From: Celeribacter sp.
Lineage (GTDB): Bacteria; Pseudomonadota; Alphaproteobacteria; Rhodobacterales; Rhodobacteraceae
Direction: 5' to 3'
Length of the DNA stretch: 64,000 nucleotides
Assembly (NCBI RefSeq): GCF_048261515.1
Contig: NZ_JBLXFZ010000002.1
Span: forward strand, 23,347 to 87,346
Positions 29,739-45,922 of the stretch are shown one piece after another. Both the position numbers and the translations under genes were made by a program. Within the stretch, counting starts at the first letter, position 1, and every line of letters starts with the position of its first letter. The notes under the pieces are model-generated. The model saw only the letters and a program-made list of their open reading frames with translations, searched no databases and was not told the origin of the DNA.

Positions 29739-30395
29739 ATGACCTTTTCCCCCGATGAGCTGGCAAAGCGGCAAGCCATTATCGATCACTGCATCTTGAT
29801 GAATAGCTCGGGGCTCAATCAAGGGACGTCGGGAAACGTTTCGATCCGTCATGGCGAGGGACTTTTGATCTCACCGACGTCACGTCCCTATGCGAGCCTC
29901 ACACCGGAAGACATCGTCTTTATTGATGGGGACGGGGAGCCGCATGGTCGCTGGAAGCCTTCGACCGAATGGCGTTTCCACCGTGATATTCTCAAGACAC
30001 GCAAGGACGCAAATGCTGTGGTCCATGCGCACCCGACCTACACCACGATCCTTTCGATCCATAACAAAGAGATCCCCGCCATCCACTACATGCTGGCGGT
30101 CTTCGGCGGGCCGAATATTCGCGTTGCTCCCTATGCGATTTACGGAAGCCAAGAGCTTTCCGACAATGCGATTGAGGCACTGGTGGATCGTCAGGCCTGT
30201 ATCCTCGAGCACCACGGCATGATCTCCGTCGGCACCTCGATCCAGCAGGCATTCTGGTACGCGACCGAGCTTGAAACCCTTGCGCGTCAGTATCACGGCG
30301 CCCTGCTTCTGGGTGAGCCGCCTTTGCTTACGGATCAGCAAATTCAGGATGTCATCGACAAAATGGCGGGCTACGGCCTGAGCGACAAAAAATAA
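29739..30395 (+). CDS. Class II aldolase (L-fuculose-phosphate aldolase family)
   Basis: GTSGNVS, PSTEWRFH, HAHP, LEHHGM. Confidence 0.92.
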   Translation: MTFSPDELAKRQAIIDHCILMNSSGLNQGTSGNVSIRHGEGLLISPTSRPYASLTPEDIVFIDGDGEPHGRWKPSTEWRFHRDILKTRKDANAVVHAHPTYTTILSIHNKEIPAIHYMLAVFGGPNIRVAPYAIYGSQELSDNAIEALVDRQACILEHHGMISVGTSIQQAFWYATELETLARQYHGALLLGEPPLLTDQQIQDVIDKMAGYGLSDKK

Positions 30396-30406
30396 GGAGG
30401 CTCTCG

Positions 30407-31357
30407 ATGCCTAAGTACGACTATTCCGCAGTAGGCTTTTCTGTTCTCGATGTGCTGTGCCGCTACGCAGAAGATATGCCCCCTCCAGGTGGCGCGACAT
30501 TCGTGGACGAGATCCAGATGACGGTTGCGGGCACGGCAGCAGCGACGGCTGTTGATTGCGCGATCCTCGGTTTGAATGGCCAGATCGTCACCCGCGTGGG
30601 TCGCGATGACATGGGGAACTACCTCGTCAGCAAAATGGGCGAGTTCGGCATTGATACCTCTTTGGTGCAATATGACGACGACGTGCAGACATCGACCAGC
30701 ATGTTGCCCATCCGTCCTGACGGATCACGCAGCGGCTTTTTCGTTCCGGGCACGTCCGATACATTGGAGATCGGCCCCGAGCTTTGGGATGACGTTCTCG
30801 ACGCAGACATCATCCACCTCGGTGGCACGGGTCTGCTTGCAGCCTTTGACGGGGAGCCATCGGTTGCCTTGTTGAAGCGCGCGAAAGTGCTGGGTCGCAC
30901 GACTGTGTTCGATCTTATTCAGGCCAATCCCGAGACTATCGCCAAGGTCAATCCGCTTCTTCCGTACATTGACTACTTCGTGCCTTCCATCGTGGAGGCC
31001 GCAGCGATGGCCGGTGTCGATGATCCCGCAGAAGTCGCGCGTTGGTTCAAATCCAAGGGCGTCAAGAATGCGATCCTGACATTGGAAGGCGACGGCGTTT
31101 GGGTCGATCCCGAATTCGGTGAAGCGTTCCATCTGCCTGCACACAAGATCGACGTGGTCGACACGACGGGGTGCGGCGACAGCTTTACTGCGGGTATTAT
31201 CGTTGGCCTGTCCAAAGGGTGGGATATCCGCGAATGCGCTCGCTTCGCAAACGCAGTGGCTGCGAATGTCGCGCTCGGCTTGGGTTCCCAAGGCAAGCTG
31301 ACTTCGTTCGATGCCACCATCGAGGCCATGAACTCATGGCCTGTGCGCGACGCATAG
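30407..31357 (+). CDS. PfkB/ribokinase-family carbohydrate kinase
   Basis: AGTAAATA, VGRDDMG, DTTGCGDSFTAG. Confidence 0.92.
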   Translation: MPKYDYSAVGFSVLDVLCRYAEDMPPPGGATFVDEIQMTVAGTAAATAVDCAILGLNGQIVTRVGRDDMGNYLVSKMGEFGIDTSLVQYDDDVQTSTSMLPIRPDGSRSGFFVPGTSDTLEIGPELWDDVLDADIIHLGGTGLLAAFDGEPSVALLKRAKVLGRTTVFDLIQANPETIAKVNPLLPYIDYFVPSIVEAAAMAGVDDPAEVARWFKSKGVKNAILTLEGDGVWVDPEFGEAFHLPAHKIDVVDTTGCGDSFTAGIIVGLSKGWDIRECARFANAVAANVALGLGSQGKLTSFDATIEAMNSWPVRDA

Positions 31358-31390
31358 TCTGCACACAGCATAAAATTTTGGGAGGAAAAC

Positions 31391-32146
31391 ATGCTACTGG
31401 ACGGAAAAACGGCACTGGTAACAGGTGCATCGCGCGGTATCGGCGCGGAGATCGCAATCGGGCTGGCGGAGCAGGGGGCGGACGTCGCCATCACTGATCT
31501 GGCGAGCCAGTCTGTCGATCTGGCCAAGGTTCAAGCCGCAATCGAAGCGGCAGGGCGGACCTGCTACAACCATGCACTTGATGTGACATCCAAATCGTCC
31601 ATCGAGGACGTTTTTGCAGCAGTCACAGAGACCGCTGGCGGTATCGATATCCTTGTGAATAACGCGGGTATTCTTGTGCCCAAGCGTCTTGAGGAACTCG
31701 ACGAAGCCACATGGGATGCGCATTTCGACGTGAATGCGAAGGGCATTTTGCTCTGCACGAACGCCGTTCTTCCGCAAATGCGTGCGCGCAAACAGGGGCG
31801 GATCATCAACATCGCCTCTATCGCGGGACGCCAAGGCTCTCCGACCCAAGGCCACTATGCGGCGACGAAGTCTACTGCGATCACCCTGACGCGTGTTTAC
31901 GCGCAGGAAGTTGGCATGGACGGCATCACCGTTAACGCGATTTGCCCCGGTATTATCCTGACGGAAATGGGCAAAGAGAACCTCGGAAGCCAAGAAGAGA
32001 TCGACCATTGGTCCAATGTCGCCGCACTCAAGCGTCTTGGCGATCCCAAGGATGTTGTCGGTCCTGTGGCGTTCCTCGGCTCCGATCTGTCGAACTTCGT
32101 GACGGGTCAATCCATCAACGTCTGTGGCGGAATCTACTTCCACTAA
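31391..32146 (+). CDS. SDR family oxidoreductase
   Basis: TGASRGIG, NNAG, YAATK. Confidence 0.93.
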   Translation: MLLDGKTALVTGASRGIGAEIAIGLAEQGADVAITDLASQSVDLAKVQAAIEAAGRTCYNHALDVTSKSSIEDVFAAVTETAGGIDILVNNAGILVPKRLEELDEATWDAHFDVNAKGILLCTNAVLPQMRARKQGRIINIASIAGRQGSPTQGHYAATKSTAITLTRVYAQEVGMDGITVNAICPGIILTEMGKENLGSQEEIDHWSNVAALKRLGDPKDVVGPVAFLGSDLSNFVTGQSINVCGGIYFH

Positions 32147-32291
32147 GTGAAACGCGAGGCTGGCCGTGTGAGTGGCTGGCCTCCCGATACTATCCCGCTC
32201 GCCCTCTTTCGGAGACCTTCATGTGTCACACAGCATCAGCCTGCATAACACACGTCACGGTCTGTCTTTCTCGGACAGGGTGGGCGGACGC

Positions 32292-33482
32292 ATGAGCGCC
32301 GTCGCCTCCGCATCGAGAGCAATCCCGCGCGGCTTCGTGATGCGTCACGCTATGGCCCAACTGATCATGTGGTCAGCCTTCTACTATCTCTTGCCCGCCA
32401 TCCTGCCGCATATGCTTGCGGGCACGGGGTGGTCTGGCGTGGTTGTGTCGGGGGCGTTTACGGCGGTTTTTCTGTTCTGGGCGGTGCTGTCGCCTGTCGC
32501 GGGCGCAATCATTGATCGTGGGTATGGCGCGGTTGCGATGCGTCTGGCGGGAGGCCTTGGTGCGTTTTTGCTGCTGATCTTCTCGGTGGTGCAGAGCCAG
32601 ACCTTGGCGCTTGGAATTCTCGTCGTGTTGGGGCTTCCCATGGCGATGACCCTCTATGATCCCTGTTTTAGTCTTATGATTACGCGCTTTGGCGCGGGTC
32701 AGTCGTCGCGGCGTGCGATTACGGTTGTCACGCTTGTTGCGGGTCTTGCAACGCTGCTGACATTTCCTTTGGTGGCGTGGCTTGCGTCAGCGGGTATGGA
32801 CTGGCGCTGGATCGTCCGCGTTTTTGCCGTCCTCGTTTGCATTGCCGTGGCGATTATGCCCGCCGATGGGGTTGTGCGAAGCGTCGCTCCTCGGCCTGAC
32901 GGGGTACTAACACATTCGGGCGGAAAATCCCGTGCGATGGCTATCGGAATGGCCTTTGCCTTGGTGATGCTCGGACATGCGCTTCTGTTGTTCCAGCTTC
33001 CGCTTCAACTGGCAAAGCTGACTGACGGGGATGCCGCCCTCATGCTGCCGATGGTCTTGGGGCCTGCGCAGATATTCGGGCGTTTGGTTTGGGGTGCGCT
33101 CTTGGGGCGGATGGCATTGGATCGCGCGGCGATCGTGCTCTTCGGCTTCATGATTTTGCCGCCGCTTATGCTCTTTATGACTTCGGGTCTGACCGTCGCT
33201 CTGATCGCTCTTATCATCCAGGGCGCGGGTTTTGGTGTGCAGACGGTTATCCGTCCGATGCTTTCGGCACAGTGGATCCCTGAAACGGGTTTCGCGCAGC
33301 AGCTTGGCCTGATCGCGATGATCGGACTTCTCTTCATGGCACTCGCGCCTGTTCTGGGCGCATGGGTCGCCGCGGCATCGGGCGTCACGGGACTTGTCGC
33401 AATGGTTCTCGCGGTAGATCTGGCTGGTCTGGCACTGTTGCTAGGGTTGGTCGTTACCGCACGCAGGGAGGCTTGGGCGTGA
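32292..33482 (+). CDS. MFS transporter
   Basis: About 12 hydrophobic segments; GAIIDRGYG loop; LYDPCF; start moved to ATG 32292. Confidence 0.8.
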   Translation: MSAVASASRAIPRGFVMRHAMAQLIMWSAFYYLLPAILPHMLAGTGWSGVVVSGAFTAVFLFWAVLSPVAGAIIDRGYGAVAMRLAGGLGAFLLLIFSVVQSQTLALGILVVLGLPMAMTLYDPCFSLMITRFGAGQSSRRAITVVTLVAGLATLLTFPLVAWLASAGMDWRWIVRVFAVLVCIAVAIMPADGVVRSVAPRPDGVLTHSGGKSRAMAIGMAFALVMLGHALLLFQLPLQLAKLTDGDAALMLPMVLGPAQIFGRLVWGALLGRMALDRAAIVLFGFMILPPLMLFMTSGLTVALIALIIQGAGFGVQTVIRPMLSAQWIPETGFAQQLGLIAMIGLLFMALAPVLGAWVAAASGVTGLVAMVLAVDLAGLALLLGLVVTARREAWA

Positions 33483-34642
33483 TGGGTGTTGTCGTAGCAG
33501 GTGGCGCCATGACGCCGTTCAATCGTCGCAAGGATGCAAGCTCCTATCGCGACTGGTGCGCTGACGCCTTTCACGGGGCCTGCATGGATGCGGGGCTGGA
33601 TACGTCAGATATCGACGCGCTGGTTGTCGCCATCGAAAGCGATTTCTTCTCCCTGCAACTCAATCCAGCAGCACTTGTCGCGGATCACCTCGGACTGCGC
33701 GACATTCATGTCCAGCGCGTCGAAGGGGGCGGGGCCACGGGGCATTTGGCCGTGCAGGCAGGTGCCGCGCTCGTCGCCTCGGGGCAGGCACGCCGCGTTG
33801 CGGTTCTGGGGTTCGAGGGATCGGCCTCCCATCTTCCGCCCGCGTCGATGAGCCTGCTCTATGCCATGTCATATGACGCATGGGCGGAGGGGATGATCGA
33901 GATCGGTTCAGCCTCCATCTATGCTTTGTCCGCGCTTGCCTATATGGCGCAAACAGGTGCGACATCCGAAGATTTCGCAGGCATCGCCGCGCGCAACCAT
34001 CAAAATGCGCGTTTAAATCCGAAGGCACATTTGCCACTGGATGTGAGCGTGGCCGATGTACTGGCCTCGCCAATGGTGTCGTCACCTTACCGTCGTCTGG
34101 ATTGCTCTCCCTTGAGCGATGGCGCGGCCTGTGTTGTGCTTGCGCGGCCTGACGCTCTTCCTGAGGTGGGCAAGGGGCGTGCGACACTGGCGGGTACAGC
34201 CGTTGCAAATGATCTGGTACGGTTGGGGGATCGACCCGATGTTGGGCGTTTCCGCGCGAAAACCACGGCCGCACAGCGTGCCTATGCGCAGGCGGGCTGC
34301 CGTCCGAGCGACATTGGCGTGGCCGAAGTTTATGACAGTTTCTCGGGCGCGCAGCTTCAAGCATTGGATGCATTGGGTGTGGTCGAGGATGCGGTGGCAT
34401 CCGAGCGCAACGGGCATTTCGCCGCCGATGGAGCGCTTCCCGTGAACCTCTCGGGCGGGCTGTTGGGGCAGGGGGCGCCTGTCGGGGCAACGGGCGTTGC
34501 GCAAGTGCTGACTGCCGCCCTGCAACTTGAGGGGCGCTACGAAGGTTTGCGCCCGCAGACACCACCTCGTTTTGCTCTTGTTGATACTCATGGCGGGGTT
34601 GCCACCCTGTGTGCGGTCTCCGTTTTGGAGGCGCCCCGATGA
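33482..34642 (+). CDS. Thiolase-family protein (SCP2/non-specific lipid-transfer type)
   Basis: NHQNARLNPKAH, CSPLSDGAAC, AEVYDSF, NLSGGLLGQGAPVGATG; the usual N-terminal catalytic Cys position reads GGATG. Confidence 0.85.
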   Translation: MGVVVAGGAMTPFNRRKDASSYRDWCADAFHGACMDAGLDTSDIDALVVAIESDFFSLQLNPAALVADHLGLRDIHVQRVEGGGATGHLAVQAGAALVASGQARRVAVLGFEGSASHLPPASMSLLYAMSYDAWAEGMIEIGSASIYALSALAYMAQTGATSEDFAGIAARNHQNARLNPKAHLPLDVSVADVLASPMVSSPYRRLDCSPLSDGAACVVLARPDALPEVGKGRATLAGTAVANDLVRLGDRPDVGRFRAKTTAAQRAYAQAGCRPSDIGVAEVYDSFSGAQLQALDALGVVEDAVASERNGHFAADGALPVNLSGGLLGQGAPVGATGVAQVLTAALQLEGRYEGLRPQTPPRFALVDTHGGVATLCAVSVLEAPR

Positions 34643-35004
34643 AGTATCACCTCGTACTTGATTACACCCTCGCGACAGGTCGCTTGTCGCCTTTCTTTAC
34701 CGCTTTGGCTGAAGGGCGGGCCTGTGCCAGCTCCTGCATGTCCTGCGGACAGACAGCCTTTCCGCCGCGCGCGACATGCGCGGCCTGCCACGCTGACGGG
34801 TTCGACTGGGTGGACCTGACGGGGGAGGCAGAGGTGCTTCACATCACGCATACGGCAGATTCCGCATTCGCATTGGTGCAATTCGACGGGGCGGACACAA
34901 CCGCGCTCGTCAGGATTGCGCATGACCAGACAGAGGGAACGCGCGGACGGCTCGTGCGCTCCGAAAATGAAACGGGCCTGTGGCTAGAGATCACGGCGTC
35001 TTAG
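34639..35004 (+). CDS. DUF35-type Zn-ribbon/OB-fold protein (thiolase partner)
   Basis: CMSCGQTAFPPRATCAAC; overlaps the thiolase stop. Confidence 0.85.
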   Translation: MKYHLVLDYTLATGRLSPFFTALAEGRACASSCMSCGQTAFPPRATCAACHADGFDWVDLTGEAEVLHITHTADSAFALVQFDGADTTALVRIAHDQTEGTRGRLVRSENETGLWLEITAS

Positions 35005-35016
35005 GAGGAAAAAGAG

Positions 35017-36669
35017 ATGTTTACGGATTGGACTGCGGATCAACTCGCACATATCGGTTTGAAACGGGCAGAGACGGGTGTCGAGATCGACATTCCCGAG
35101 GATGCTAATATCTACGCCATGACGGTTGGCAGGCAGATCGCAGAGGGGCGCGCGGATGCGCCTGCGATGGTGTTCGAAAAGCCCGATGGCACGTTGGAGC
35201 ATTGGAGCTTCGGGCAGGTTGATGACGCCGCCACAGCTCTCGCCGCACGGCTTCGTGCTCTCGGTTACGGGCAGGGCGACTACATCGGGCTGCACACGGG
35301 AATGCGCCCCGAAACCGCCATTGCTCATATGGCCGTGTGCAAACTCGGTGGTGTTGCGGTGACGCTTTCGCAACTTTACGGCCCCGACGCCCTGTCCCAT
35401 GCGCTCAACCATTGCGGCGCACGTTGCCTGCTGACGTCCGAGCAAGGTTGGTCGGGCTTGCGTGCTGACGCGAAAAGCCTCTTCCCCGATCTCGCGCACG
35501 TTCTCGTGGCCGATTGCGAAGGGTCCGAAGAAAACCTCGGTGATGTTCTGGCCTCAGACGCGCCTGCCGATTTCGAGCCCGCCTTCACGGGCGCGGACGA
35601 TACGGCGCTCTTGATGTATACCTCCGGTTCGACGGGGATGCCGAAAGGTATCCGTCACGGTCACCGCGTGCTGGCGTCCTACCGTCCGTCGATCAACCTC
35701 TTTTTCAATCTCAGCATGTATGACGAGGATGCTGTATTCTGGTCGCCGTCCGATTGGGCGTGGGTTGGCGGATTGCTCGATATGCTCTTCCCCGCGTGGA
35801 TGGCGGGGTGTCCTGTGGTCACTGCTGAAGCGCGGTTCAAGGCCGAATGGGCCTACGACTTCATGGCGCGCCACAAGATCACGCACACCTTCCTTGCTCC
35901 GACCGCGATCAAACGTCTGGCACAAACGTCCAATCCGCGTGACACCTACGATTTGTCGCTGCGCGTGATTTGCACGGGCGGTGAGGCACTGGCTGCGGAT
36001 ACGCTGGCATGGGCCGAGGACGAGCTTGGCGTTGTGTGCAACGAGTTCTACGGCATGACCGAGGTCAACCACCTCATCGGCAACTGTGCAGCGCTTTACC
36101 CGCGTCGCCCCGGTTCGATGGGCGTGGCCTATCCGGGCCATGTGGTGAAGCTGGTCGATGCGGATGGCAACGAGGTTCCCGATGGCGAAGAGGGTGAAAT
36201 CGTCACCCCCGCCACGGCTCCCACGCGCTACTTGGGCTATCTCAAGAACGAGCAGAAGGAATCCGAGCTACGTCTTGGTGACTGGATGCGGACCTTCGAC
36301 TTGGCTGTGCGCGATGAAGACGGATACTTCTGGTATAAAGGGCGCTCCGACGATCTCATCAAATCCTCGGGCTTCCGCATTGGACCTGCCGAGATCGAAA
36401 GCTGTTTGCTGGCCCACCCCGATGTCGCCGAGGTTGCCGTGATTGGCAAGCCCGACGCCGACCGTGGCCAGATCGTCAAAGCCTTCGTGCGTCTGGCAAA
36501 GGGCGCGAGCGCCGAGGATGACCTTGTGAAGGCGCTGCAAAACCACGTGCGTGAGCGCCTCGCCGCCTACAAGGCACCGCGCGAAATCGCCTTTGTCGAC
36601 AGTTTTGAAATGACGTCCTCCGGAAAAATCAATCGCCGCGCTTTGCGCAATGCTGAAGCCGCCGCCTGA
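35017..36669 (+). CDS. AMP-forming acyl-CoA synthetase
   Basis: YTSGSTGMPKG, YGMTE, GRSDDLIKSSGFRIGPAEIE, SSGKI. Confidence 0.93.
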   Translation: MFTDWTADQLAHIGLKRAETGVEIDIPEDANIYAMTVGRQIAEGRADAPAMVFEKPDGTLEHWSFGQVDDAATALAARLRALGYGQGDYIGLHTGMRPETAIAHMAVCKLGGVAVTLSQLYGPDALSHALNHCGARCLLTSEQGWSGLRADAKSLFPDLAHVLVADCEGSEENLGDVLASDAPADFEPAFTGADDTALLMYTSGSTGMPKGIRHGHRVLASYRPSINLFFNLSMYDEDAVFWSPSDWAWVGGLLDMLFPAWMAGCPVVTAEARFKAEWAYDFMARHKITHTFLAPTAIKRLAQTSNPRDTYDLSLRVICTGGEALAADTLAWAEDELGVVCNEFYGMTEVNHLIGNCAALYPRRPGSMGVAYPGHVVKLVDADGNEVPDGEEGEIVTPATAPTRYLGYLKNEQKESELRLGDWMRTFDLAVRDEDGYFWYKGRSDDLIKSSGFRIGPAEIESCLLAHPDVAEVAVIGKPDADRGQIVKAFVRLAKGASAEDDLVKALQNHVRERLAAYKAPREIAFVDSFEMTSSGKINRRALRNAEAAA

Positions 36670-36706: not shown

Positions 36707-38176
36707 ATGAAGATGATCCAACTCCTACCCGAAGTGGCTGCCTTTCTCGATGCTACGCAGGGGCTGCGCATTGATGGTGAACAGATCGAAACCTCGGAAA
36801 CCATCTCGGTCGAGAACCCGTCCGACTGCTCGATTTTGGCGCAGGTTGCCTGTGCTGACGCAGGTCACGTCGATCAGGCCGTTTCCGCCGCGCGTCAGGC
36901 TCTAAACGGTCCGTGGGCGCGTTTGACGCCTCACGATCGCGGGCAGCTTCTGTGGAAACTCGCGGATGCGATCGAAGAACGAAAAGACGTTTTCGGACAG
37001 TTGGACGCTTTAGACAACGGCAAGCCCTTTGCTCATGCGCGGGACGTGGATGCGGTTTGGTCGGCCCGTCATTTCCGCTATTTCGCGGGTTGGCCGAGCA
37101 AGATCCAAGGTGCGACCATTCCCGTCTCGACGCCGGATCGGTTCAACTTTACCCGCATCGAACCTGTTGGCGTCTGTGGTATCATCACTCCGTGGAACTA
37201 TCCCACGCTGATGGTCGCATGGAAACTGGCGCCCGCTTTGGCGGCGGGGAACACAATTGTTCTCAAGCCTGCCGAGCAAACCCCGTTGAGTGCGCTCTAT
37301 CTCGCGGATCTGGCACTTGAGGTCGGGTTCCCCAAAGGGGTTCTGAACGTCATTCCAGGTTATGGGCGTGACGCAGGGGCTGCACTCGCGGCACACAATG
37401 GTGTGGATAAGGTCGGCTTCACGGGGTCCACGGAAACGGGGCGTCGGATCGTTGAGGCGTCAGCGGGTAATCTTAAGAAGGTCTCGTTGGAGCTTGGCGG
37501 TAAAGCGGCGAACATCCTGTTCGACGATGCTGATTTGTCGAAGGCTATTCCTGGTGCGTTCTGGGCGCTGTTTGGCAACAACGGTCAGTCGTGTACTGCG
37601 GGCGCGCGTTTGTATGTCCATCGCTCGAAAATGGATGAAGTTCTTGAAGGGCTACAAGAGCTGGCTAACGGTTTGAGCATTGGTCCGGGGATGGCGCAGG
37701 ACGCACATGCGCTTGGTCCCGTTATCTCCGAGCCTCAGATGACCAAGGTTCTCGGCTATATCGAAAGCGGTCGCGCCGATGGTGGCGAGATTGTCGCGGG
37801 TGGCGCACGTCAGGGCAACAGCGGCTATTTCGTGCAGCCCACCGTTATCGCGGGCGTGCGGGACGACATGGCCGTTGCGCGTGAAGAAATCTTCGGTCCC
37901 GTTCTGAGTGTTCTTCCCTTCGAGGATGAGGATGACGTTTTGGCGCGTGCGAACGACACGGTCTACGGGCTGGCGGCTGGTTGTTGGACCCAAGACATCA
38001 GCCGCGCAAATCGCATGGCGGCGGGTCTCAAGGCGGGAACGATCTGGATCAACTGCTGGGGAGACACCGATGCGGCCTCTCCCTTCGGCGGAATGGGACA
38101 AAGCGGTTACGGCCGCGAAATGGGGCCAGACGCTCTGGCGCTCTACACGCAGACGAAGAGTGTCTGGCAAGGTTAA
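36707..38176 (+). CDS. NAD-dependent aldehyde dehydrogenase
   Basis: PWNYP, FTGS, LELGGK, GQSCTAG, EEIFGPV. Confidence 0.95.
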   Translation: MKMIQLLPEVAAFLDATQGLRIDGEQIETSETISVENPSDCSILAQVACADAGHVDQAVSAARQALNGPWARLTPHDRGQLLWKLADAIEERKDVFGQLDALDNGKPFAHARDVDAVWSARHFRYFAGWPSKIQGATIPVSTPDRFNFTRIEPVGVCGIITPWNYPTLMVAWKLAPALAAGNTIVLKPAEQTPLSALYLADLALEVGFPKGVLNVIPGYGRDAGAALAAHNGVDKVGFTGSTETGRRIVEASAGNLKKVSLELGGKAANILFDDADLSKAIPGAFWALFGNNGQSCTAGARLYVHRSKMDEVLEGLQELANGLSIGPGMAQDAHALGPVISEPQMTKVLGYIESGRADGGEIVAGGARQGNSGYFVQPTVIAGVRDDMAVAREEIFGPVLSVLPFEDEDDVLARANDTVYGLAAGCWTQDISRANRMAAGLKAGTIWINCWGDTDAASPFGGMGQSGYGREMGPDALALYTQTKSVWQG

Positions 38177-38224: not shown

Positions 38225-38962
38225 ATGAAAAACCCAACGATCCCAAAGTATAAGATGGTTCATGACGAACTACTCAAGCGCTTGAAGGCGGGGATGTATT
38301 CCGTCGGTACACGCTTGCCCTCGGAAGACGCCTTGGCGCGGTCTTTCGGTGTCAGCCGTCTAACAGCGCGTCGTGCGCTGGAGCCATTGGTAGATGCCGG
38401 TTATCTGGTGTCGCGACAGGGCAGTGGCTATCTCGTCAACACCCTGTCGCCGCCAGAAACAACCTGCCTGACCTCATTTACGGATATGGTTCTGCGCGAC
38501 GGTCAGATTCCGGGCGCACGTCTGATTGAAATTCGTGAGCGTGATGACGAGCCGCCGCACGAAGTGACCTCGTTGTTCAATGAACCCGTGGCACTCATTC
38601 GGCGTCTACGAACGGTGGATGGTGTACCCACACTGTTGGTGAGCACTTGGCTGCCTTGTCGTTTGGTCGAGGGGATGAGCCCCGAAGACTTCCCGCAAGA
38701 GGGGCAGGACCAGTCAATCCTGCGCATTCTGTCGGAGCGGTTCAATCTCGATTGGGGGCGTGCCTGTGAAACCATTGGACCGTGCGCGGCTCCCGAAGAC
38801 GCGGCGGAACATCTCGGTATCGAGGAGAACACGCCAATCCTGTCGCAGGCCTGCACCGCGTTCGACAGCGATCACAACCCTGTCTTTTTCGATCAGGTCT
38901 ACCGCGTTGGCCCTGTCACTTTCAATCTCGTCGGAGCGCAAAGATCCTCCGACACGATCTAA
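38225..38962 (+). CDS. GntR family regulator (HutC/UTRA)
   Basis: LPSEDALARSFGVSRLTARRAL wHTH plus UTRA-like C-terminus. Confidence 0.9.
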   Translation: MKNPTIPKYKMVHDELLKRLKAGMYSVGTRLPSEDALARSFGVSRLTARRALEPLVDAGYLVSRQGSGYLVNTLSPPETTCLTSFTDMVLRDGQIPGARLIEIRERDDEPPHEVTSLFNEPVALIRRLRTVDGVPTLLVSTWLPCRLVEGMSPEDFPQEGQDQSILRILSERFNLDWGRACETIGPCAAPEDAAEHLGIEENTPILSQACTAFDSDHNPVFFDQVYRVGPVTFNLVGAQRSSDTI

Positions 38963-38977: not shown

Positions 38978-40402
38978 ATGTCTCTCGTGGTCGGAATTAT
39001 CAAAGGGTCTCTTCCCAGCTATTTCCCTGAGAAATATGGCGTTTTCCCTGCCGCTTTTGCGGCTGTCGAGGAGGTCGCCTCTGGCGTTGATGCCCGTGTG
39101 GTGGAAGTGCCGAGCGTTCCCATGGATGGTTCTGGCGCGAGAGAGGCGGTCGATTATTGCAAAAGCAACGGCGTGGATTTCATTCTGCTTGTGCATGGTG
39201 GTTTCACTATGGGCGATGTTGCACGCGAAATCGCCGCGAGCGGAATGCCAATGGGGGTTTGGGCCACGCCTGAACCCGTTCATGAAAACGACATTCAGCT
39301 CAATAACTTTGTGTCCTTGAACATGAGCCTATCCATTGCACGCGGCGTGCGCGATCTACGTAAAGCGCCTGTGCAATGGTACTTCGGCGCACCCGATAGC
39401 GCACAGTTCCAAGCGCGTTTGGGGCGCACACTTCGAGCTTTGACGGCACGCAAGGCGTTGCAGCATGCGCGCATCGGTGTCGTCGGTGGTTTGGCGCCGA
39501 CATTCTACAATATGGCGGTGTCCCCCGACACGTTGAAGCGCAGCACAGGTGTTGAACCTGTACACGTTGATATGATGCGCATGACCGCTGGAATGGCGAA
39601 CTGTGCCGAGGATGACGTTGCGCGCGAAGTGGCCGCGATGTTGGCGAAAGCACCGATGCGCGGCGTGTCCGATGCTCATATGGAGAAAACCGCGCGGGCG
39701 GCATTGTCCCTTCGTGACATTGCAGCACAAGAGGGTTTCGTGGGCCTGGCCGTGTCGGACTGGCCGACTTTGCAAGAGGTCGAGGGTATCCATCCAGGTG
39801 CGGCGTTCACGTGGCTTGAAGAGAATGACAATATCCCCGTGGCTTCCGAAGGCGATGTGCTGGGAACGGTGACGCAACTCGTTGCGCGCGCGCTCACGGG
39901 ACGTGTCGGTTGCCTACTGGATATGACCTCCCCGCAGCTGGAGCAGAATCGAATTCTGATGTGGCATGGCGGTGGAGGGCCGCTCTATATGGCGGCGGGA
40001 GAGGCGGCTTGGATCAACAATCCCATGATCGGTCGTGGCACCCCTGAAGGGGCCTGTTTCGGGGCCATTGTGGACTATGAATTCAGTGATGGCGCGCACA
40101 CGATTTTGCGTGTTGCCCGCAGTGGCACAGCCACCTTCACCGTAGAAGGATCCGTGCAGGCGGGAGGAGAAACTGGCTTCACGGGGACGCGCGGCTGGGT
40201 CACGAATTTCCGTTCAAATACAGGTGATTGTACGGCATCCGATGTGGTCACGACAGTGATGGAGCACGGGCTTGAGCACCACTATGTCTTGGTGCCTGGT
40301 GAGTGGTCAGCCGACTTCAATGAGTTCTCGGCGTGGATGGCGATGGAACAACTTCCGGTTATTTCCGCCCATGATGGGCTGCCGAGCACTTCTATCGCTT
40401 GA
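38978..40402 (+). CDS. L-fucose/L-arabinose isomerase family protein
   Basis: VASEGDVLG, MWHGG, HHYVLVPG; overall layout of the FucI/AraA superfamily. Confidence 0.72.
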   Translation: MSLVVGIIKGSLPSYFPEKYGVFPAAFAAVEEVASGVDARVVEVPSVPMDGSGAREAVDYCKSNGVDFILLVHGGFTMGDVAREIAASGMPMGVWATPEPVHENDIQLNNFVSLNMSLSIARGVRDLRKAPVQWYFGAPDSAQFQARLGRTLRALTARKALQHARIGVVGGLAPTFYNMAVSPDTLKRSTGVEPVHVDMMRMTAGMANCAEDDVAREVAAMLAKAPMRGVSDAHMEKTARAALSLRDIAAQEGFVGLAVSDWPTLQEVEGIHPGAAFTWLEENDNIPVASEGDVLGTVTQLVARALTGRVGCLLDMTSPQLEQNRILMWHGGGGPLYMAAGEAAWINNPMIGRGTPEGACFGAIVDYEFSDGAHTILRVARSGTATFTVEGSVQAGGETGFTGTRGWVTNFRSNTGDCTASDVVTTVMEHGLEHHYVLVPGEWSADFNEFSAWMAMEQLPVISAHDGLPSTSIA

Positions 40403-40473
40403 CAGGTTCCGTAAAGCGTGTTCAGGTTGTATCAACAAATTCGTCAATACAGATTTAGGGTGGGAGAAGCTCG

Positions 40474-41523
40474 TTGACAAAAGTGCAGATAAAGTCGGTT
40501 CGGAAAGAATTCGGTGGTTTCACCGCAATCGAGAATATCGACTTGGACATCGAGTCGGGCGAGCTGGTCGCTTTGTTGGGGCCGTCGGGCTGCGGCAAGA
40601 CGACAACCTTGCGTATGATCGCAGGCCTTGAGCATCCGACAAGTGGGGAGATTTTGTTTGACGGGCGCGATGTTTCTGATCATCCCGTCCAAGATCGGAA
40701 CGTAGGCATGGTGTTCCAGCGCTATGCGCTGTTCCCGCATATGACGGTCGAAAAGAACGTGGCGTTTGGTCTGAAAGTGCGTGGCACGCCTCAGTCCGAG
40801 ATTGCTCCGCGTCTCGACGAAATCCTCGACGTGGTTCAACTGACGCAGTTCCGTCACCGCTTCCCCGCCCAACTTTCTGGCGGACAGATGCAGCGTGTCG
40901 CGATTGCGCGGACACTCATCACCAAGCCTTCGGTCCTGATGATGGACGAGCCGCTTGCAAACCTCGACACGAAACTGCGCGGCGAGATGCGCCAGTTTAT
41001 TCGCGAGTTGCAGCAGCGCTTCGGGATCACGACGATCTTCGTGACGCACGATCAGGTTGAGGCGATGGAACTCGCTGACCGTGTAGCGGTGATTTTCAAC
41101 GGCCATCTGGCGCAATTCGACACGCCGGAAGCGCTCTACAATCATCCCAAAACGCTTGATGTCGCCGACTTCATGGGCGCGTCGAACATCGTGCCTGGCC
41201 GCATGACTTCGGCCACGTCGGTGACAACCGATCTGGGTGAAGTCAGCGTCGTCGCACGTGATGACATCTCCGCAAACCAGTCGGTTCAGGTCATGCTCCG
41301 CAGTGAAGCTATTGATTTGAAGCTCGAAGCTCCTGCTGCAGGTAATGCCATCAGCGGGACTGTAACAGGGCGCGACTTCTTCGGTGCGAACGTAAGCTAC
41401 GCCGTCGATTGTGGTGGACGAACCATCGAAGTTAACGAGCCAGGCGGTCGCCGCTTGGTCGATGTGGGGACGCCTGTGTGGCTCGATATCGCGCCCGACC
41501 GTGTTTGGCTCCTGCGAAACTGA
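40474..41523 (+). CDS. ABC transporter ATP-binding subunit (PotA/MalK-like)
   Basis: GPSGCGKT, LSGGQMQR, MDEP, TOBE-like tail. Confidence 0.95.
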   Translation: MTKVQIKSVRKEFGGFTAIENIDLDIESGELVALLGPSGCGKTTTLRMIAGLEHPTSGEILFDGRDVSDHPVQDRNVGMVFQRYALFPHMTVEKNVAFGLKVRGTPQSEIAPRLDEILDVVQLTQFRHRFPAQLSGGQMQRVAIARTLITKPSVLMMDEPLANLDTKLRGEMRQFIRELQQRFGITTIFVTHDQVEAMELADRVAVIFNGHLAQFDTPEALYNHPKTLDVADFMGASNIVPGRMTSATSVTTDLGEVSVVARDDISANQSVQVMLRSEAIDLKLEAPAAGNAISGTVTGRDFFGANVSYAVDCGGRTIEVNEPGGRRLVDVGTPVWLDIAPDRVWLLRN

Positions 41524-41589
41524 TCTGGCGCTTAAGCCTGAAACTTACTTTGGAGGAGTGAATTAATGAAAACTTTAGGGAGGACTACT

Positions 41590-42933
41590 ATGAAACACTC
41601 ATGGAAACTGGCGAGCGTCATCGCCATTGTGGCGGCTCAAGCTGCTGTAGCAGACGATGTGAATGAATTCCGCGAGGCATTCTTGGCTGGTGAACTCGAC
41701 TGGTCCGCTGTCGAAGCGCGCGCCCAAGAAGAGGGCGAAGTGAACCTGTACTACTACGGTGGTATCGACCCGCTGAATGTTTGGATGGACCGCGTTGTTG
41801 GACCTGCTATGTCCGACCTCGGAATCAAACTGAACCCCGTGCGCATCACCGCGACCAAAGATGCCGTCGATCTGGTTCTTGCCGAGAAGAACTCCGGTAA
41901 GGGCCTCGGCGAAGGTAGCATTGACCTCATCTGGTTGAACGGCGAAAACTTCGCAACGCTCAAGCGTCAAGACGCATTGTTCGGTTCGTTCGCAACGCTT
42001 CTGCCGAATTCGGCAAACCTTGAGTTTGATCCAGAAGATCCGCGTTCGCAGCTGAACCTGCGTGACTTCGGTGTTGAAAACAATGCCGCAGAAATGCCGT
42101 GGTCTGGCGATCAATACGTCTGTTCCTATAACGCTGACCGCGTTGCAGCAGAAGACGTGCCTTCCACTTTTGAAGAGATGCACGCCTATCTGGAAGAGAA
42201 CCCAGGCAAGTTCACCTACGTCAAGCCGCCGCACTACCTCGGCAACACCTTCGTTCAGGAAGTCATTTACGCATTCAATCCTGATGGTACGGGTGCCGAG
42301 CCTTTCCAACAGTCGCGTGACGACATCCCCGCAGAAGAGTTGGCACGTTTGATCGAGCCTGCCTTCGAATATCTTCGCGACATCGAGCCTCTGCTTCTTG
42401 ACGGGACCAATGGGAGCGCACGCTACCCTGAGGACAACCCCTCGCTGGACGGCTTGTTCTTGAACGGTGAGATTGACTTCTCCTGTGCGTTTGGCCTCTA
42501 CGGCGCGGCGACAGGGCTGGCTATGGGCACATTCCCGGAAGCTGCACAGCAGTTCATCTTCCCCGAAAACACCATGATCAAGAACAAGAACTATCTGGGT
42601 GCTCCATCCAATATGCCGAACCCCGCTGCGGCGATGGTTCTGGCTAACTGGATGACCTCGCTCGAGTCTCAGGCGACGAAAATGCAGATGGCGGGTCAGC
42701 CCGCAGGTATCGATGTGTGGAAACTCAGCGAAGCTGATGCTGCAACGCTCGCCGAAGCCTCTCCGGGCCTGATTGGTGTAACTGCGGAAGAACTTGCCGC
42801 TAATACCGCACCCGACACCAATGCGACGCTGGTTGATGTGATCGAGGCCACATGGCTCGAGTACATTGAGCGTGACAGCACGGACTCCATCGAAACCATC
42901 GTGGCGCGCGCCTACGAGAACCTTTCGAAGTAA
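41590..42933 (+). CDS. ABC transporter substrate-binding protein (YnjB-like)
   Basis: Signal peptide; IDLIWLNGENF, GKFTYVKPP motifs; alternative start at 41566. Confidence 0.8.
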   Translation: MKHSWKLASVIAIVAAQAAVADDVNEFREAFLAGELDWSAVEARAQEEGEVNLYYYGGIDPLNVWMDRVVGPAMSDLGIKLNPVRITATKDAVDLVLAEKNSGKGLGEGSIDLIWLNGENFATLKRQDALFGSFATLLPNSANLEFDPEDPRSQLNLRDFGVENNAAEMPWSGDQYVCSYNADRVAAEDVPSTFEEMHAYLEENPGKFTYVKPPHYLGNTFVQEVIYAFNPDGTGAEPFQQSRDDIPAEELARLIEPAFEYLRDIEPLLLDGTNGSARYPEDNPSLDGLFLNGEIDFSCAFGLYGAATGLAMGTFPEAAQQFIFPENTMIKNKNYLGAPSNMPNPAAAMVLANWMTSLESQATKMQMAGQPAGIDVWKLSEADAATLAEASPGLIGVTAEELAANTAPDTNATLVDVIEATWLEYIERDSTDSIETIVARAYENLSK

Positions 42934-42942
42934 AACGATCCT

Positions 42943-42971
42943 TGTCCGCCGCGCCCTACACGCGGCGGACA
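42943..42971 (+). terminator. Intercistronic 11-bp stem-loop after the SBP gene
   Basis: TGTCCGCCGCG-N7-CGCGGCGGACA. Confidence 0.55.
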
Positions 42972-42995
42972 CCATCCCCACATTTGGAGATCAGG

Positions 42996-43937
42996 ATGTC
43001 AAATCCTTCAGCGACAGTCCCTGAACCTGCGCGCGCGCCTCGCCGCACTCTCGCCGAAAGGCAACGCCGCGCCCGTTTCTGGCAAATTGCGCAACTCGTG
43101 CCGATGATGGCTGTGTTGCTGGTATTGTTTGGCGGCGCGCTTTTTCTAGCCGTTCTACAATCTCTCGGCTTTGCACCTTGGTTCGGGGTCAACACTTTCC
43201 CCGACTTCTCGTTCTTTGGCGCCCTGTGGGGATCCTCGACGTTCTGGGTGTCACTTTGGCTGACGCTCTATTACGCGACGGTGTCTACCATCCTCGCCTT
43301 GATCTTCGGTACGCTTTTGGCTCTGGCGCTGGTGAAAACCTTCCCAAGCAAAACGCTCTATAAGTACCTCTACAAACTGCCATTGATGATCCCCTATACC
43401 GTCGGGATCGCCCTTGCCATGATCATGCTCGGCAATGGCGGTATGCTCTCTCGCTTGGCAGCATTCTTCGGACTGATCGACGATCCGTCGCAGTTCATCC
43501 AAATCCTCAAGACGCACTACGGGTGGGGCATCATCGCCGTGTACGTCTGGAAGCAGACACCGTTCATCACTTTGGCAGTATATGCCGTGTTGCTCGGGGT
43601 AGGGCGCGAAACCGAAGAAGCAGCCGCGATCCTTGGTGCTCGCAAATACCGCATCTTCTTCAGCGTTACCCTGCCGCAAATCCTGCCAGGTATCGTGTCG
43701 TCGACGCTCATCTGCTTCGCCTTCAATGTCGGCGCTTTCGAGGCTCCGTTTATTCTGGGGGGAGGGTTCCCTGATACCCTGCCAGTGGTGGCGTGGCGCT
43801 ACTTCAATGACGCAGACTACACATTGCAATTGCAAGGCATGGCAACTGTTGTGTCCATCGGAATGGTCGCGGGTGTGATCTTGTTCTCATACCTCGCAGT
43901 ATACCGACGCTACGAGCGTCGTATGGGGCGGAACTGA
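42996..43937 (+). CDS. ABC transporter permease
   Basis: TM segments; EAA motif ETEEAAAILGA. Confidence 0.9.
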   Translation: MSNPSATVPEPARAPRRTLAERQRRARFWQIAQLVPMMAVLLVLFGGALFLAVLQSLGFAPWFGVNTFPDFSFFGALWGSSTFWVSLWLTLYYATVSTILALIFGTLLALALVKTFPSKTLYKYLYKLPLMIPYTVGIALAMIMLGNGGMLSRLAAFFGLIDDPSQFIQILKTHYGWGIIAVYVWKQTPFITLAVYAVLLGVGRETEEAAAILGARKYRIFFSVTLPQILPGIVSSTLICFAFNVGAFEAPFILGGGFPDTLPVVAWRYFNDADYTLQLQGMATVVSIGMVAGVILFSYLAVYRRYERRMGRN

Positions 43938-43938
43938 T

Positions 43939-44799
43939 ATGAAAAAAGCAAATGATACTTCACTGAACGAGCGTCTGTCCCCGTTCCAGAAGTTCTACCT
44001 GATTATCGTGGTGGGCTTTATCCTCGGGCCGTTCATTCCTTTGATCATTCAGAGTTTCGCCTTCCGCTGGGCGTGGCCTGATCTCCTGCCGAGCACTTGG
44101 TGGCTTGAACAGCGCGAGAAATCGATGTTCCCGCTCGCATGGGACTACGTTCTCTCGCCTTACAGCAACCTGTGGGAGGCGACGGTTAACACTGTGGTGA
44201 TCGGGCTTGTGGTGACATTCATCTGTCTCGCGATCTCCCTGCCTGCCGCAAAGGTTCTGGCGCGTGACCAGTTCCGTGGAAAGAACGCGTTTGAGTTCTT
44301 CCTGTCGCTGCCACTGATTGTGCCCGAAGCTGCGATTGGTATCGCTCTGTTGATGATCTTCATTCATCTCGGATTGGCGGGTACCTACGTGGGGATTGTG
44401 ATCGCCCATTTGATCCCGACCATTCCCTACATGGTGCGAATGCTCACATCCGTCTATCAGGGTCTCGGCCGTGATTTCGAGGAACAGGCGATGATCTTGG
44501 GTGCAAGCCCGTTGCAGGTCCTGCGCCTTGTGACCCTTCCCATGCTGTTGCCTGGCGTTGTGGCCGGTGCGTTGTTCACCTTCCTTGTGTCAACCAACAT
44601 CTTCTTGCTGACCTTCTTCCTTGGACAAGGGAAGGTCATCACCTTGCCGACGCTTTTGTTCTCGAAAATCTCAAGCGGAACGCTCGACGCCTCCGCCGCT
44701 GGCCTCGCTTTGATTGTGACCGTTCCCGGGATCATTCTGCTCATCATCTCTGAGCGCTTCATCAAAGAAGAAGCTTTCGGCAAAGGCTTTGGAAATTAA
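43939..44799 (+). CDS. ABC transporter permease
   Basis: EAA motif FEEQAMILGAS. Confidence 0.9.
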   Translation: MKKANDTSLNERLSPFQKFYLIIVVGFILGPFIPLIIQSFAFRWAWPDLLPSTWWLEQREKSMFPLAWDYVLSPYSNLWEATVNTVVIGLVVTFICLAISLPAAKVLARDQFRGKNAFEFFLSLPLIVPEAAIGIALLMIFIHLGLAGTYVGIVIAHLIPTIPYMVRMLTSVYQGLGRDFEEQAMILGASPLQVLRLVTLPMLLPGVVAGALFTFLVSTNIFLLTFFLGQGKVITLPTLLFSKISSGTLDASAAGLALIVTVPGIILLIISERFIKEEAFGKGFGN

Positions 44800-44812
44800 A
44801 AGGACGTTTCAC

Positions 44813-45922
44813 ATGATCGACCCAACTATCCTCAGTCGCTTCCCCAAGATCGACCCCAAGACCCTTGAGGCACGACTTGGACGGCCAGGGCCTTCTCCGC
44901 GCGTGATCATTGATACCGACACCGCCAACGAAATCGATGACCAATATGCTCTCGCATGGTCCTTGCTCTCTCCTGAGCGGATGGATCTGGAAGGCGTCAC
45001 CGCTGTGCCGTTTTCCTTTGCCCACCACAGGGAAGGCCTGCTCGAGTCCTATGACCTGATCAAAGACGCAGAAGGCAAGGGCGATGCCGAGCGCTTCATG
45101 GGCGGCTTCGGTGGATGGGCCAAGCGGCTGATCGACCAAGGGCGTAGCGTTGATGACGTCACCTTTGTCGGCCCCGCTGAAGGCGTGGAACTCTCTTATC
45201 AAGAGATCCTGCGCGTCTTCGACAAATGCGGCGTATCGAGTGAGGGGAAGGTCTTTAAAGGATCGCCCGCGTATCTCGAAAGTTTTGATCAGCCCATCGA
45301 CACGCCTGCCGCACGGTTCATCATCGAGCGTGCGCGTGCCGAGGATGATCGCCCGCTGTATGTGCTCGCTATGGGTGCCCTGACGAATATCGCGTCTGCC
45401 TTGCTTATGGCGCCCGATATCATCGAGAAGATCGTCGTGGTTTGGACCGCATCCTTCCCGTCCTACGCGCCGTTCTGTAACGAGCCGTCATTGAACCTCG
45501 TGCAGGATAAACTTGCCTCGCAGCTTTTGTTCGAGAGCGGCGTCCCGCATGTCTATCTGCCTGGCTATCACGTCGGTGCGCAGCTGAAGATTTCGCTGCC
45601 TGAGATGGAGCGGTTTGTGAGCGGGCAGGGCGCGATTGGTGACTACCTCCACCACTTGTATACGCATAACCCGCTGCACGACATGTTCGCGATCACGGAT
45701 GCGGAAACAAAGACATGGGTGATCTGGGACATCATCAATGTCGCGTGGCTGTTCGATCCTGACTATGTCTCGACCAAGATCATGCCGTCTCCTGTTCTCA
45801 ATGACGAGTTGTATTGGGAGCATCCAGAGGGCGCGCATATGATGCTGGAAGCCTTCGATCTCGATCGAGATGCGATCTTTGAGGACTTCTACGAAACACT
45901 AAAGCGCGCACCAAAAGCGTAA
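44813..45922 (+). CDS. Nucleoside hydrolase (IU-NH family)
   Basis: IIDTDTANEIDD, MGALTNIA, WDIINVA. Confidence 0.88.
   Translation: MIDPTILSRFPKIDPKTLEARLGRPGPSPRVIIDTDTANEIDDQYALAWSLLSPERMDLEGVTAVPFSFAHHREGLLESYDLIKDAEGKGDAERFMGGFGGWAKRLIDQGRSVDDVTFVGPAEGVELSYQEILRVFDKCGVSSEGKVFKGSPAYLESFDQPIDTPAARFIIERARAEDDRPLYVLAMGALTNIASALLMAPDIIEKIVVVWTASFPSYAPFCNEPSLNLVQDKLASQLLFESGVPHVYLPGYHVGAQLKISLPEMERFVSGQGAIGDYLHHLYTHNPLHDMFAITDAETKTWVIWDIINVAWLFDPDYVSTKIMPSPVLNDELYWEHPEGAHMMLEAFDLDRDAIFEDFYETLKRAPKA

Follow-up and report, generated by a model that had tools for sequence, protein, structure and literature searches.

What compound is broken down by the packed array of genes at positions 29739-45922 (+ strand) of a 64,000-nucleotide stretch of a Celeribacter genome (the whole of which we call the window), and do these genes act together? 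We find the array to be real, conserved, and mobile, a catabolic regulon that has apparently not been described before, and we consider it probable, with moderate confidence drawn from sequence comparisons, that it forms one GntR-controlled, horizontally mobile system for an imported nucleoside-like glycoside. The open reading frame (ORF) listing places 15 genes in the array, separated by gaps of -34 to +71 bp. An earlier note on this DNA had described 14 co-directional, tightly spaced genes; direction and spacing stand and the number changes, and the gene families that it named are all encoded, as assigned by Pfam and NCBIfam scans of the cluster proteins and, for the isomerase, by its predicted fold. 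The genes encode, in order, a class II FucA-like aldolase, a PfkB kinase, a short-chain dehydrogenase/reductase (SDR), a major facilitator superfamily (MFS) transporter, a thiolase-fold protein, a DUF35 protein, an AMP-forming acyl-coenzyme A (acyl-CoA) ligase, an aldehyde dehydrogenase (ALDH), a GntR/UTRA regulator, a 474-aa protein without a Pfam match, an ATP-binding cassette (ABC) ATPase, a substrate-binding protein (SBP), two permeases, and a nucleoside-hydrolase-like (NH-like) protein.

The route that we propose would begin with uptake of the compound by the YnjB/PotD-type ABC importer, after which a long N-ribohydrolase-fold enzyme would remove the aglycone and free an aldose; in other versions of the cluster a PNP/MTAN-superfamily enzyme would take this step, alone or beside the hydrolase. 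An AraA/FucI-fold isomerase would make the 2-ketose, the PfkB kinase would phosphorylate C1, and the FucA-type class II aldolase would cleave C3-C4 to give dihydroxyacetone phosphate (DHAP) and an aldehyde, the same end being reached in most relatives by a psicose-type 3-epimerase, DhaK/DhaL, and a LacD-type class I aldolase. The ALDH would oxidise the aldehyde, the acyl-CoA ligase would activate an acid (most simply the ALDH product), and a Cys-less thiolase-fold protein with its DUF35 partner would split the CoA ester at a C-C bond, most likely in a retro-aldol reaction as in Sal/Ltp2 and not by thiolysis. The MFS protein would probably export a by-product.

We gathered loci around homologues of the isomerase (44-95% identity) from genomes, metagenomes, and plasmids, and searched these with tblastn for homologues of every cluster protein. 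Counts cover the 39 loci that extend at least 8 kb upstream and at least 7 kb downstream of the isomerase gene; these loci are mutually related and not independent samples, and the counts are descriptive, not statistical. The ABC genes are present in 35-37 of the 39 loci, the NH-like gene in 34, epimerase, DhaL, and DhaK in 34 each, GntR in 33, the acyl-CoA ligase (orthologues 59-81% identical) together with the thiolase-like gene in 33, the LacD-type aldolase in 31, an MFS gene within the flanks in at least 26, and a PNP_UDP_1-superfamily gene in 14. Two layouts are found: a single operon, as in the window, or two convergent operons, the first running SBP-permeases-ATPase-(PNP)-epimerase-DhaL-DhaK-LacD-SDR-isomerase and the second thiolase-like-DUF35-ligase-(ALDH)-GntR-NH. 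Dozens of loci have this gene set in common, so chance does not account for the array, and retention of the set while order and strand vary argues for one function. A lack of co-conservation, which the earlier note had named as grounds for giving up its proposal, is thus not what we observe, the core genes being kept in 33-37 of the 39 loci. Its remark that the combination matched no named pathway also holds: we found no mapping onto a characterised pathway, and our literature search returned no publication describing this gene combination or an isomerase-first variant of the DHAP shunt.

Common control is suggested by a predicted operator. Upstream of the first gene by ~140 bp lies a perfect palindrome of GntR/HutC type, ATTTGTAGTCACAAAT, with an adjacent degenerate copy (29586..29620, +), and a second copy, TTGTATCAACAA, is found 36 bp upstream of the ABC ATPase gene (40427..40438, +). 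The core TTGTANNNACAA (TTGTA-N3-ACAA) has two sites in the window (29588 and 40427), both within the cluster, with 0.26 expected by chance. In related loci the core motif stands ahead of the ABC genes (L001, L002, L005, L006, and L016), ahead of both the transporter/sugar and the CoA-module operons (L018, L019, L020, and L022), or ahead of the thiolase-like gene (L007). A palindromic GT-N-AC type predicted operator is therefore present at the promoters of the regulated operons, as the GntR/HutC family has it, and the regulator encoded in the cluster (38225..38962, +; Pfam GntR and UTRA) belongs to this family. The predicted operator has the classical HutC/GntR shape and would join the sugar and CoA genes to one regulator in silico.

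The last gene of the array encodes the long NH-like protein (44813..45922, +; the ORF opens at 44789, and 44813 is the probable start), which matches Pfam IU_nuc_hydro at 66 bits against a cut-off of 34. We aligned it with the genome's two canonical nucleoside hydrolases and compared 54 orthologues. The residues with which PF01156 enzymes bind Ca2+ and the ribose 2',3'-diol are kept: all 54 orthologues have the Ca2+ cluster DTDxANEIDD as well as the residues equivalent to Asn168 and Asp242, and the Thr126 equivalent in the GALTN loop is Thr in 49 and Pro in 5. The pair that binds the 5'-OH and the general-acid His of group I enzymes are lost, with Asn160 replaced by Pro (53/54), Glu166 by Ser (54/54), and His241 by Trp (54/54). 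We take Asn160 and Glu166 to hold the ribose 5'-OH and His241 to be the general acid, as in the Crithidia IU-NH structures; Trp at the His241 position is the hallmark of those purine-specific enzymes in which stacking activates the base. The genome encodes its canonical inosine-uridine-type nucleoside hydrolases elsewhere (C1:55814-56704 and C1:752522-753400; 357 and 259 bits), and the cluster hydrolase is therefore an extra, specialised copy.

A gene of the PNP/MTAN superfamily, distant from DeoD, HpnG, and AMP nucleosidase, is present in many clusters, and the minimal clusters L072, L073, and L104 have no other candidate for a glycosidic-bond enzyme. The occurrence of two nucleosidase folds in one system argues for a nucleoside-like substrate. 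Our best guess at its class, made from these sequence features, is a purine ribonucleoside or riboside with a modified 5' position (e.g., a 5'-deoxy-, 5'-methylthio-, or 5'-arsinoyl-riboside); a sugar modified at position 5 is suggested because the 5' pocket is rebuilt, ordinary hydrolases are encoded elsewhere, and the route would pass through a 1-phosphate and not through ribokinase. TIGR04283, also considered as a clue to the substrate, was dropped, as it scores above cut-off in 101 of 301 genomes across the class, this genome included.

The DHAP shunt (MtnN/MtnP, MtnK/DrdK, MtnA/DrdI, Ald2/DrdA) resembles the proposed route in cleaving a nucleoside, in passing from a 5-substituted ribose to the ribulose 1-phosphate, and in using a FucA-like class II aldolase to give DHAP and X-CH2-CHO. 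It differs in that the cluster would reverse the order, with an isomerase acting on the free sugar followed by a ketose 1-kinase; none of the 15 cluster proteins is an MtnK- or MtnA-family enzyme by Pfam and NCBIfam, the nucleosidase has the NH fold, and an oxidative/CoA branch replaces aldehyde reduction and excretion. The haloarchaeal non-carboxylating pentose bisphosphate pathway likewise leads from nucleoside ribose through ribulose 1-phosphate to a FucA-like aldolase, and the window aldolase scores 161 bits with the NCBIfam RU1P aldolase model, but that pathway uses a ribose 1,5-bisphosphate and phosphatase route, and none of those enzymes is encoded in the cluster.

The 474-aa protein without a Pfam match (38978..40402, +), the signature gene product of the system, is predicted to be a metal-dependent aldose-ketose isomerase. 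Its AlphaFold (AF2) model (pLDDT 91, pTM 0.92) has the three-domain AraA/FucI fold, and in Foldseek it superposes over its full length on L-arabinose isomerases with template modelling (TM) scores of 0.78-0.81 and on FucI/D-arabinose isomerase with 0.71-0.75, at only 13-15% sequence identity to AraA/FucI; the earlier description of a FucI/AraA-like isomerase thus agrees with the predicted structure. Four residues, E291, D315, H330, and H434, are invariant in 30 isomerase sequences, and their spacing (24/15/104) is near that of the AraA Mn2+ site of two acidic residues and two histidines (E306/E333/H350/H450; 27/17/100), an equivalence drawn from spacing alone.

Two kinase-aldolase pairs occupy the next position in the proposed route. 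The window aldolase (29739..30395, +; 218 aa, Pfam Aldolase_II 175 bits) has E. coli FucA as its nearest solved relative (208 bits; 154 bits to the 5-deoxyribulose-1-phosphate aldolase DrdA, 6BTD). It falls under the NCBIfam cut-offs for L-fuculose-phosphate aldolase (NF005984, 232 vs. 264 bits; TIGR01086, 221 vs. 400), and we call it FucA-like, not FucA. The PfkB-family kinase (30407..31357, +; 316 aa, Pfam PfkB) is a putative ketose 1-kinase, its best solved relatives being the ketose 1-kinases YdjH (95 bits) and the sulfofructose kinase YihV (76 bits), with scores just slightly above those of ribokinases. It is always paired with the FucA-type aldolase, and is found only in the window, L001, and L052. 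The alternative set comprises four genes for three activities: an epimerase (a xylose-isomerase-like TIM barrel closest to D-psicose 3-epimerase, 204 bits against its model), the two-subunit kinase DhaK/DhaL, and a class I LacD-type aldolase that scores above the tagatose-1,6-bisphosphate aldolase cut-off. Epimerase, Dak kinase, and LacD alone are present in 31 of the 39 loci and PfkB and FucA alone in 3; both sets together are present in none.

DhaK-type kinases bind the carbonyl adjoining the hydroxymethyl group that gets phosphorylated, and the substrates of FucA-type enzymes are ketose 1-phosphates of (3R,4R) configuration (fuculose, ribulose, psicose, and 5-deoxyribulose). Most simply, both sets would make a ketose 1-phosphate and then DHAP and an aldehyde. 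Since a 3-epimerase is required on the class I route but not on the FucA route, these specificities fit an isomerase product that is a (3R,4R) ketose of ribulose, psicose, or fuculose type, which would be epimerised to the (3S,4R) fructose or xylulose type for the class I aldolase. The earlier proposal that hydrolase, isomerase, kinase, and aldolase act in turn before aldehyde oxidation gains from both the co-conservation and the common predicted operator, and from the replacement of one kinase/aldolase pair by a non-homologous pair of equal net chemistry.

Would an ordinary sugar serve as well? The substrate could be a glycoside of such a sugar, or an arabino- or ribo-nucleoside, with a FucI-type configuration (D-arabinose, D-ribose, L-fucose, or D-allose), degraded to glycolaldehyde, lactaldehyde, or glyceraldehyde by a marine counterpart of the fucose/D-arabinose pathway of E. 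coli; the NH-fold enzyme would then be a furanosidase. The similarity of the aldolase to E. coli FucA is roughly that expected of a remote orthologue, the isomerase shares the AraA/FucI fold, and E. coli K-12 has a 1-phosphate route for D-arabinose. Some hosts are sponge-associated (Boseongicola metagenome-assembled genomes, MAGs), and sponges make arabinonucleosides; sulfatase genes beside the cluster in L086 and L090 and an arylsulfatase gene in plasmid pMaD8 hint at algal sulfated sugars. The E. coli L-fucose/D-arabinose pathway (FucI, FucK, FucA, AldA) indeed shares with the cluster an isomerase, C1 phosphorylation, FucA-type cleavage to DHAP and an aldehyde, and an NAD-dependent ALDH. However, the cluster isomerase is remote from AraA/FucI in sequence, the kinase is PfkB or DhaKL and not FGGY, and the cluster adds an NH-fold enzyme, a PotD/YnjB-type importer in place of a sugar-type one, and then an acyl-CoA ligase and a thiolase-fold lyase, neither of which glycolate, lactate, or glycerate would need. 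The two canonical nucleoside hydrolases already in the genome, the loss of both ribose 5'-OH-binding residues from the cluster hydrolase, and the recurring PNP/MTAN-superfamily gene also speak against an ordinary sugar, which we regard as unlikely.

The thiolase-fold protein (33482..34642, +; Pfam Thiolase_N/C) departs from the earlier note, in which a CoA ester was cleaved by the thiolase. Compared with the archaeal thiolases 7YVY and 6ESQ, its acyl-enzyme Cys is replaced by Gly, HDCF by YDSF, and GHP by GAP; none of the nucleophilic Cys of C-A-S-G, the acid/base Cys, and the His of GHP is present. In 42 of 42 orthologues (down to 48% identity) the Cys and both motifs are lost, and the Gly, a Tyr-Asp pair, and the His of a THGG motif are invariant. 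The HDCF position reads YD(S/A)(Y/F), with Ser or Ala as third residue, and GHP reads GAP in 39 of the 42, with His at that position in none. Thiolysis is accordingly very unlikely. The gene overlaps by 4 bp that of a free-standing, 121-aa DUF35 zinc-ribbon/OB protein (34639..35004, +; Pfam zf-ChsH2, PDB 3IRB DUF35), for which a start codon and Shine-Dalgarno sequence were located and which always lies directly 3' of the thiolase-like gene in related loci. The acyl-CoA ligase gene follows (35017..36669, +; AMP-forming, short/medium-chain, 550 aa, Pfam AMP-binding); the nearest solved relatives of its product are acetyl-CoA synthetase-like proteins, ACSM2A, and 4-hydroxybutyrate-CoA ligase.

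DUF35-bound steroid aldolases have YDHF (Ltp2) or YDCY (Sal) at the same position, with the Tyr as the base that deprotonates a beta-hydroxyl, which a Gly (Gly89 in Sal) contacts (PMC12329534, 2025); by sequence alignment only, Gly89 would fall at the former thiolase Cys. Both enzymes work between a CoA ligase and an aldehyde dehydrogenase, and C304S/A variants of Sal are inactive (PMC12329534). The cluster shares with Sal-ShyDUF35 and Ltp2-ChsH2DUF35 a Cys-less thiolase fold, Tyr-Asp at HDCF, Gly at the former Cys (these residues in 42 of 42 orthologues), a DUF35 partner, and a co-encoded CoA ligase and ALDH (Sad in the Sal system). It differs in the third residue, Ser/Ala and not Cys (Sal) or His (Ltp2), and in having GQGAP in the region of the second Tyr (Tyr344 of Ltp2); the catalytic acids of Sal (Cys304 of YDCY) and of Ltp2 (Tyr344) are thus both missing. 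Other differences are the invariant THGG His, a closer kinship to archaeal acetoacetyl-CoA thiolases, a DUF35 protein that is free-standing, and a context of sugar and not steroid catabolism. By its residues the protein resembles an aldolase, not a thiolase, and belongs to neither the Sal nor the Ltp2 subfamily. That it is a CoA-ester C-C lyase with a Tyr/His apparatus is a tentative proposal, about which our belief and our doubt are nearly balanced, with doubt a little the stronger. Malonyl-type decarboxylation or beta-elimination may also be considered, each needing a substrate for which there is no present evidence.

A sugar module might also stand beside an independent organic-acid module (MFS, ligase, thiolase-like/DUF35, and ALDH) under one regulator, the second degrading a beta-hydroxy acid that enters by an import of its own, for example a zwitterionic osmolyte of algae. 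The sugar genes occur without any CoA module in two whole genomes (G1154 and G1155) and in the minimal clusters, and the module is therefore dispensable for the sugar route. It forms an operon of its own in split clusters, an MFS gene usually heads it, and a ligase, an aldolase, and an ALDH make a self-sufficient chain-shortening unit in the Sal pathway (PMC12329534). Yet the module accompanies the isomerase in 33 of the 39 loci, and a sample of 400 genomes from across the phylum showed its thiolase-like gene in no other setting. In split clusters the hydrolase gene lies within the CoA-module operon, and the same predicted operator precedes both operons; most clusters, minimal ones that lack the CoA module among them, carry an MFS gene belonging to either of two related types. 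In pMaD8 a 4-bp overlap joins the LacD gene to the ALDH gene, and 43 bp separate the ligase gene from the epimerase gene immediately downstream of it; L065:6730-11407 carries thiolase-like-DUF35-ligase-isomerase alone, with importer, hydrolase, kinase, and aldolase not found within 10 kb, which links the isomerase directly to the CoA module. We judge two independent modules to be quite improbable.

The sulfo-Embden-Meyerhof-Parnas (sulfo-EMP) pathway (YihS/SftI-type isomerase, YihV, YihT, reductase/dehydrogenase, and exporter) runs in parallel to the proposed route, in that the glycoside of a terminally blocked sugar is hydrolysed, the sugar isomerised, phosphorylated at C1 by a PfkB kinase, and cleaved by a DeoC/LacD-family aldolase, and the C3 product is oxidised or reduced and then exported. 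Pfam and NCBIfam assign none of its defining enzymes to the cluster. A sulfoglycolysis of this kind, acting on a sulfonated or anionic 6-substituted hexose whose C3 sulfo-aldehyde would be oxidised by the ALDH and exported by the MFS protein, is hardly credible here: the sole (and weak) NCBIfam match of the isomerase is indeed the sulfoquinovose isomerase SftI, the second-best solved relative of the kinase is YihV, LacD/DeoC-family class I aldolases include sulfofructose-phosphate aldolase, and the importer family also carries charged solutes, but scores are far under family cut-offs (87 vs. 700 bits for SftI), a GH31 or NAD-dependent sulfoquinovosidase is absent and NH-fold and PNP-fold enzymes are there instead, the implied stereochemistry differs (sulfofructose, being (3S,4R), needs no 3-epimerase before a class I aldolase, and a FucA-type aldolase would be unfit), and the CoA module is left unexplained.

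Several points count against a single regulon for a nucleoside-like glycoside, beyond the kinship of the 39 loci and the clusters that do without the CoA module. An Rfam scan of the window and seven related loci gave no riboswitch in or before the cluster that would reveal the ligand, and we found no diagnostic accessory gene pointing to the substrate. The ALDH gene is present in only 19 of the 39 loci; a glucose-methanol-choline (GMC) oxidoreductase gene is found in five loci, some of these without ALDH. The stereochemistry leans on the aldolases keeping their family-typical specificities, and LacD-type enzymes are lax in this respect. The thiolase-like protein scores higher with archaeal true thiolases (182 bits) than with Ltp2 (90 bits), and its catalytic acid must differ from that of Sal, the THGG His being a candidate. 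Moreover, a 5-substituted pentose would yield an acid X-CH2-COOH, which has no beta-hydroxyl, and a retro-aldol role is not a simple consequence; the CoA module may act on another part of the substrate, such as the aglycone or a side chain. It may also lengthen the pathway so as to use a portion of the substrate that is excreted where the cluster is minimal, with the near-universal MFS protein as candidate exporter.

The cluster travels as an island or as plasmid cargo. Its nearest relatives are in the Rhodobacterales, a Celeribacter MAG (L001) being 95% identical, and DNA homology with that MAG is limited in BLASTN to 29535-45991, with different flanks. The isomerase is rare: of 401 genomes sampled from the order 8 encode it, of 401 sampled across the class 3 do, and of 5 other genomes of the same genus none does. 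Whole clusters lie on plasmids of the cultured strains Marinovum algicola DG898 (pMaD8, MALG_04864-04879), Paracoccus seriniphilus DSM 14827, and Parasedimentitalea marina, and the cluster is present in dozens of ocean metagenome contigs. We call it mobile cargo because homology ends at the block edges, the isomerase is rare, and plasmid copies exist.

The right-hand limit of the conserved block is the 3' end of the hydrolase gene with a hairpin (45743..45991, +), and these last 250 bp are repeated at 53719-53969; L001 has one copy, which is 91-92% identical to each of the two in the window. The duplicate ~8 kb downstream is consistent with insertion of the intervening genes. On the other side, a 240-bp stretch just upstream of the MAG copy (L001:219-455) is 82% identical to window positions 18563-18802, which ~10.7 kb (CRISPR-Cas, AAA ATPase) separate from the cluster, as if these ~10.7 kb were inserted cargo. 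In L052, the only metagenome contig with the PfkB/FucA variant, a tRNA gene (16955-17041) lies ~200 bp downstream of the hydrolase gene, which hints at tRNA-targeted island integration.

The remaining genes of the array fit an uptake system and accessory functions. The ABC system is of the PotA/YnjB (PRK11622) type and not of the CUT1/CUT2 sugar type: it comprises a PotA/PhnT/UgpC-like ATPase with a TOBE domain (40474..41523, +), a periplasmic SBP with a signal peptide (41566..42933, +; Pfam SBP_bac_8, NCBIfam PRK11622, YnjB-like, 270 bits against a cut-off of 203), for which we looked for a relative of solved structure and found none, and two permeases (42942-43937 and 43939-44799, +; Pfam BPD_transp_1) that are 80-89% identical in type I loci. 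The ALDH (36707..38176, +; 489 aa, Pfam Aldedh 569 bits) is a generic class 1/2, NAD(P)-dependent enzyme. The SDR (31391..32146, +; 251 aa, Pfam adh_short), which we regard as accessory, scores above the NCBIfam "glucose 1-dehydrogenase" subfamily cut-off (223 vs. 215 bits), and its orthologues (69%) adjoin the cluster in L086 and L090. The MFS gene (32172..33482, +; Pfam MFS_1) has an uncertain start, possibly 32292, and encodes the proposed by-product exporter; its weak similarity to ArsK was rejected as a sign of an arsenical (68 vs. 400 bits). A biosynthetic role for the cluster was likewise rejected, as an importer with SBP, a catabolic-type repressor, and an ALDH are encoded.

Variants of the cluster carry further genes. 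In metagenome locus L078 (7212-9204), genes for the alpha and beta subunits of a thiamine pyrophosphate (TPP)-dependent dehydrogenase E1 precede GntR-isomerase-epimerase-DhaL-DhaK, with aldolase, NH, and ABC genes not nearby; this may be a variant with thiamine-based ketose cleavage. Sulfatase genes adjoin the thiolase-like or MFS end in two metagenome loci (L086:12558-14093 and L090:17842-19374) and in pMaD8 (L033:469-1830). In the alphaproteobacterial genome locus L007, a flavin monooxygenase (FMO/Pyr_redox_3) gene lies directly 3' of the hydrolase gene (17122-18363), and a 51% homologue adjoins the cluster in L055; its target could be a heteroatom substituent.

Much of the small organic matter that algae release is turned over by bacteria of the Roseobacter group and their marine relatives, in which many transporters and catabolic islands still lack a substrate assignment. 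Its recurrence and its dedicated high-affinity importer make it probable that this regulon serves one particular metabolite of ecological relevance. One reading, to which we give low probability, is that the regulon is the missing bacterial route for 5-deoxy-5-X-ribosides from marine algae or S-adenosylmethionine chemistry, including a new class of Cys-less thiolase-fold lyase acting on a CoA ester. The candidates may then include arsenosugars and their adenosine precursor, 5'-methylthio- or 5'-deoxy-adenosine, or a sulfonium analogue. If so, C3-C4 cleavage would give DHAP and X-CH2-CHO, which would be oxidised to X-CH2-COOH, and with an arsenosugar the product would be dimethylarsinoylacetate, a long-postulated microbial step towards arsenobetaine.

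In this cluster the isomerase-kinase-aldolase theme carries two enzymatically novel components. The exchange of epimerase, DhaKL, and class I aldolase for PfkB and class II aldolase is a clean natural case of non-orthologous displacement that constrains the stereochemistry of the intermediate. Knowing the substrate would give a natural role to a "rare-sugar" 3-epimerase, would define a new nucleoside hydrolase subfamily whose 5' pocket is rebuilt and, among thiolase-fold lyases that bind DUF35, a third kind of active site that has Tyr-Asp and an invariant His but no Cys, and would add a flux of carbon, possibly of sulfur or arsenic, to marine models.

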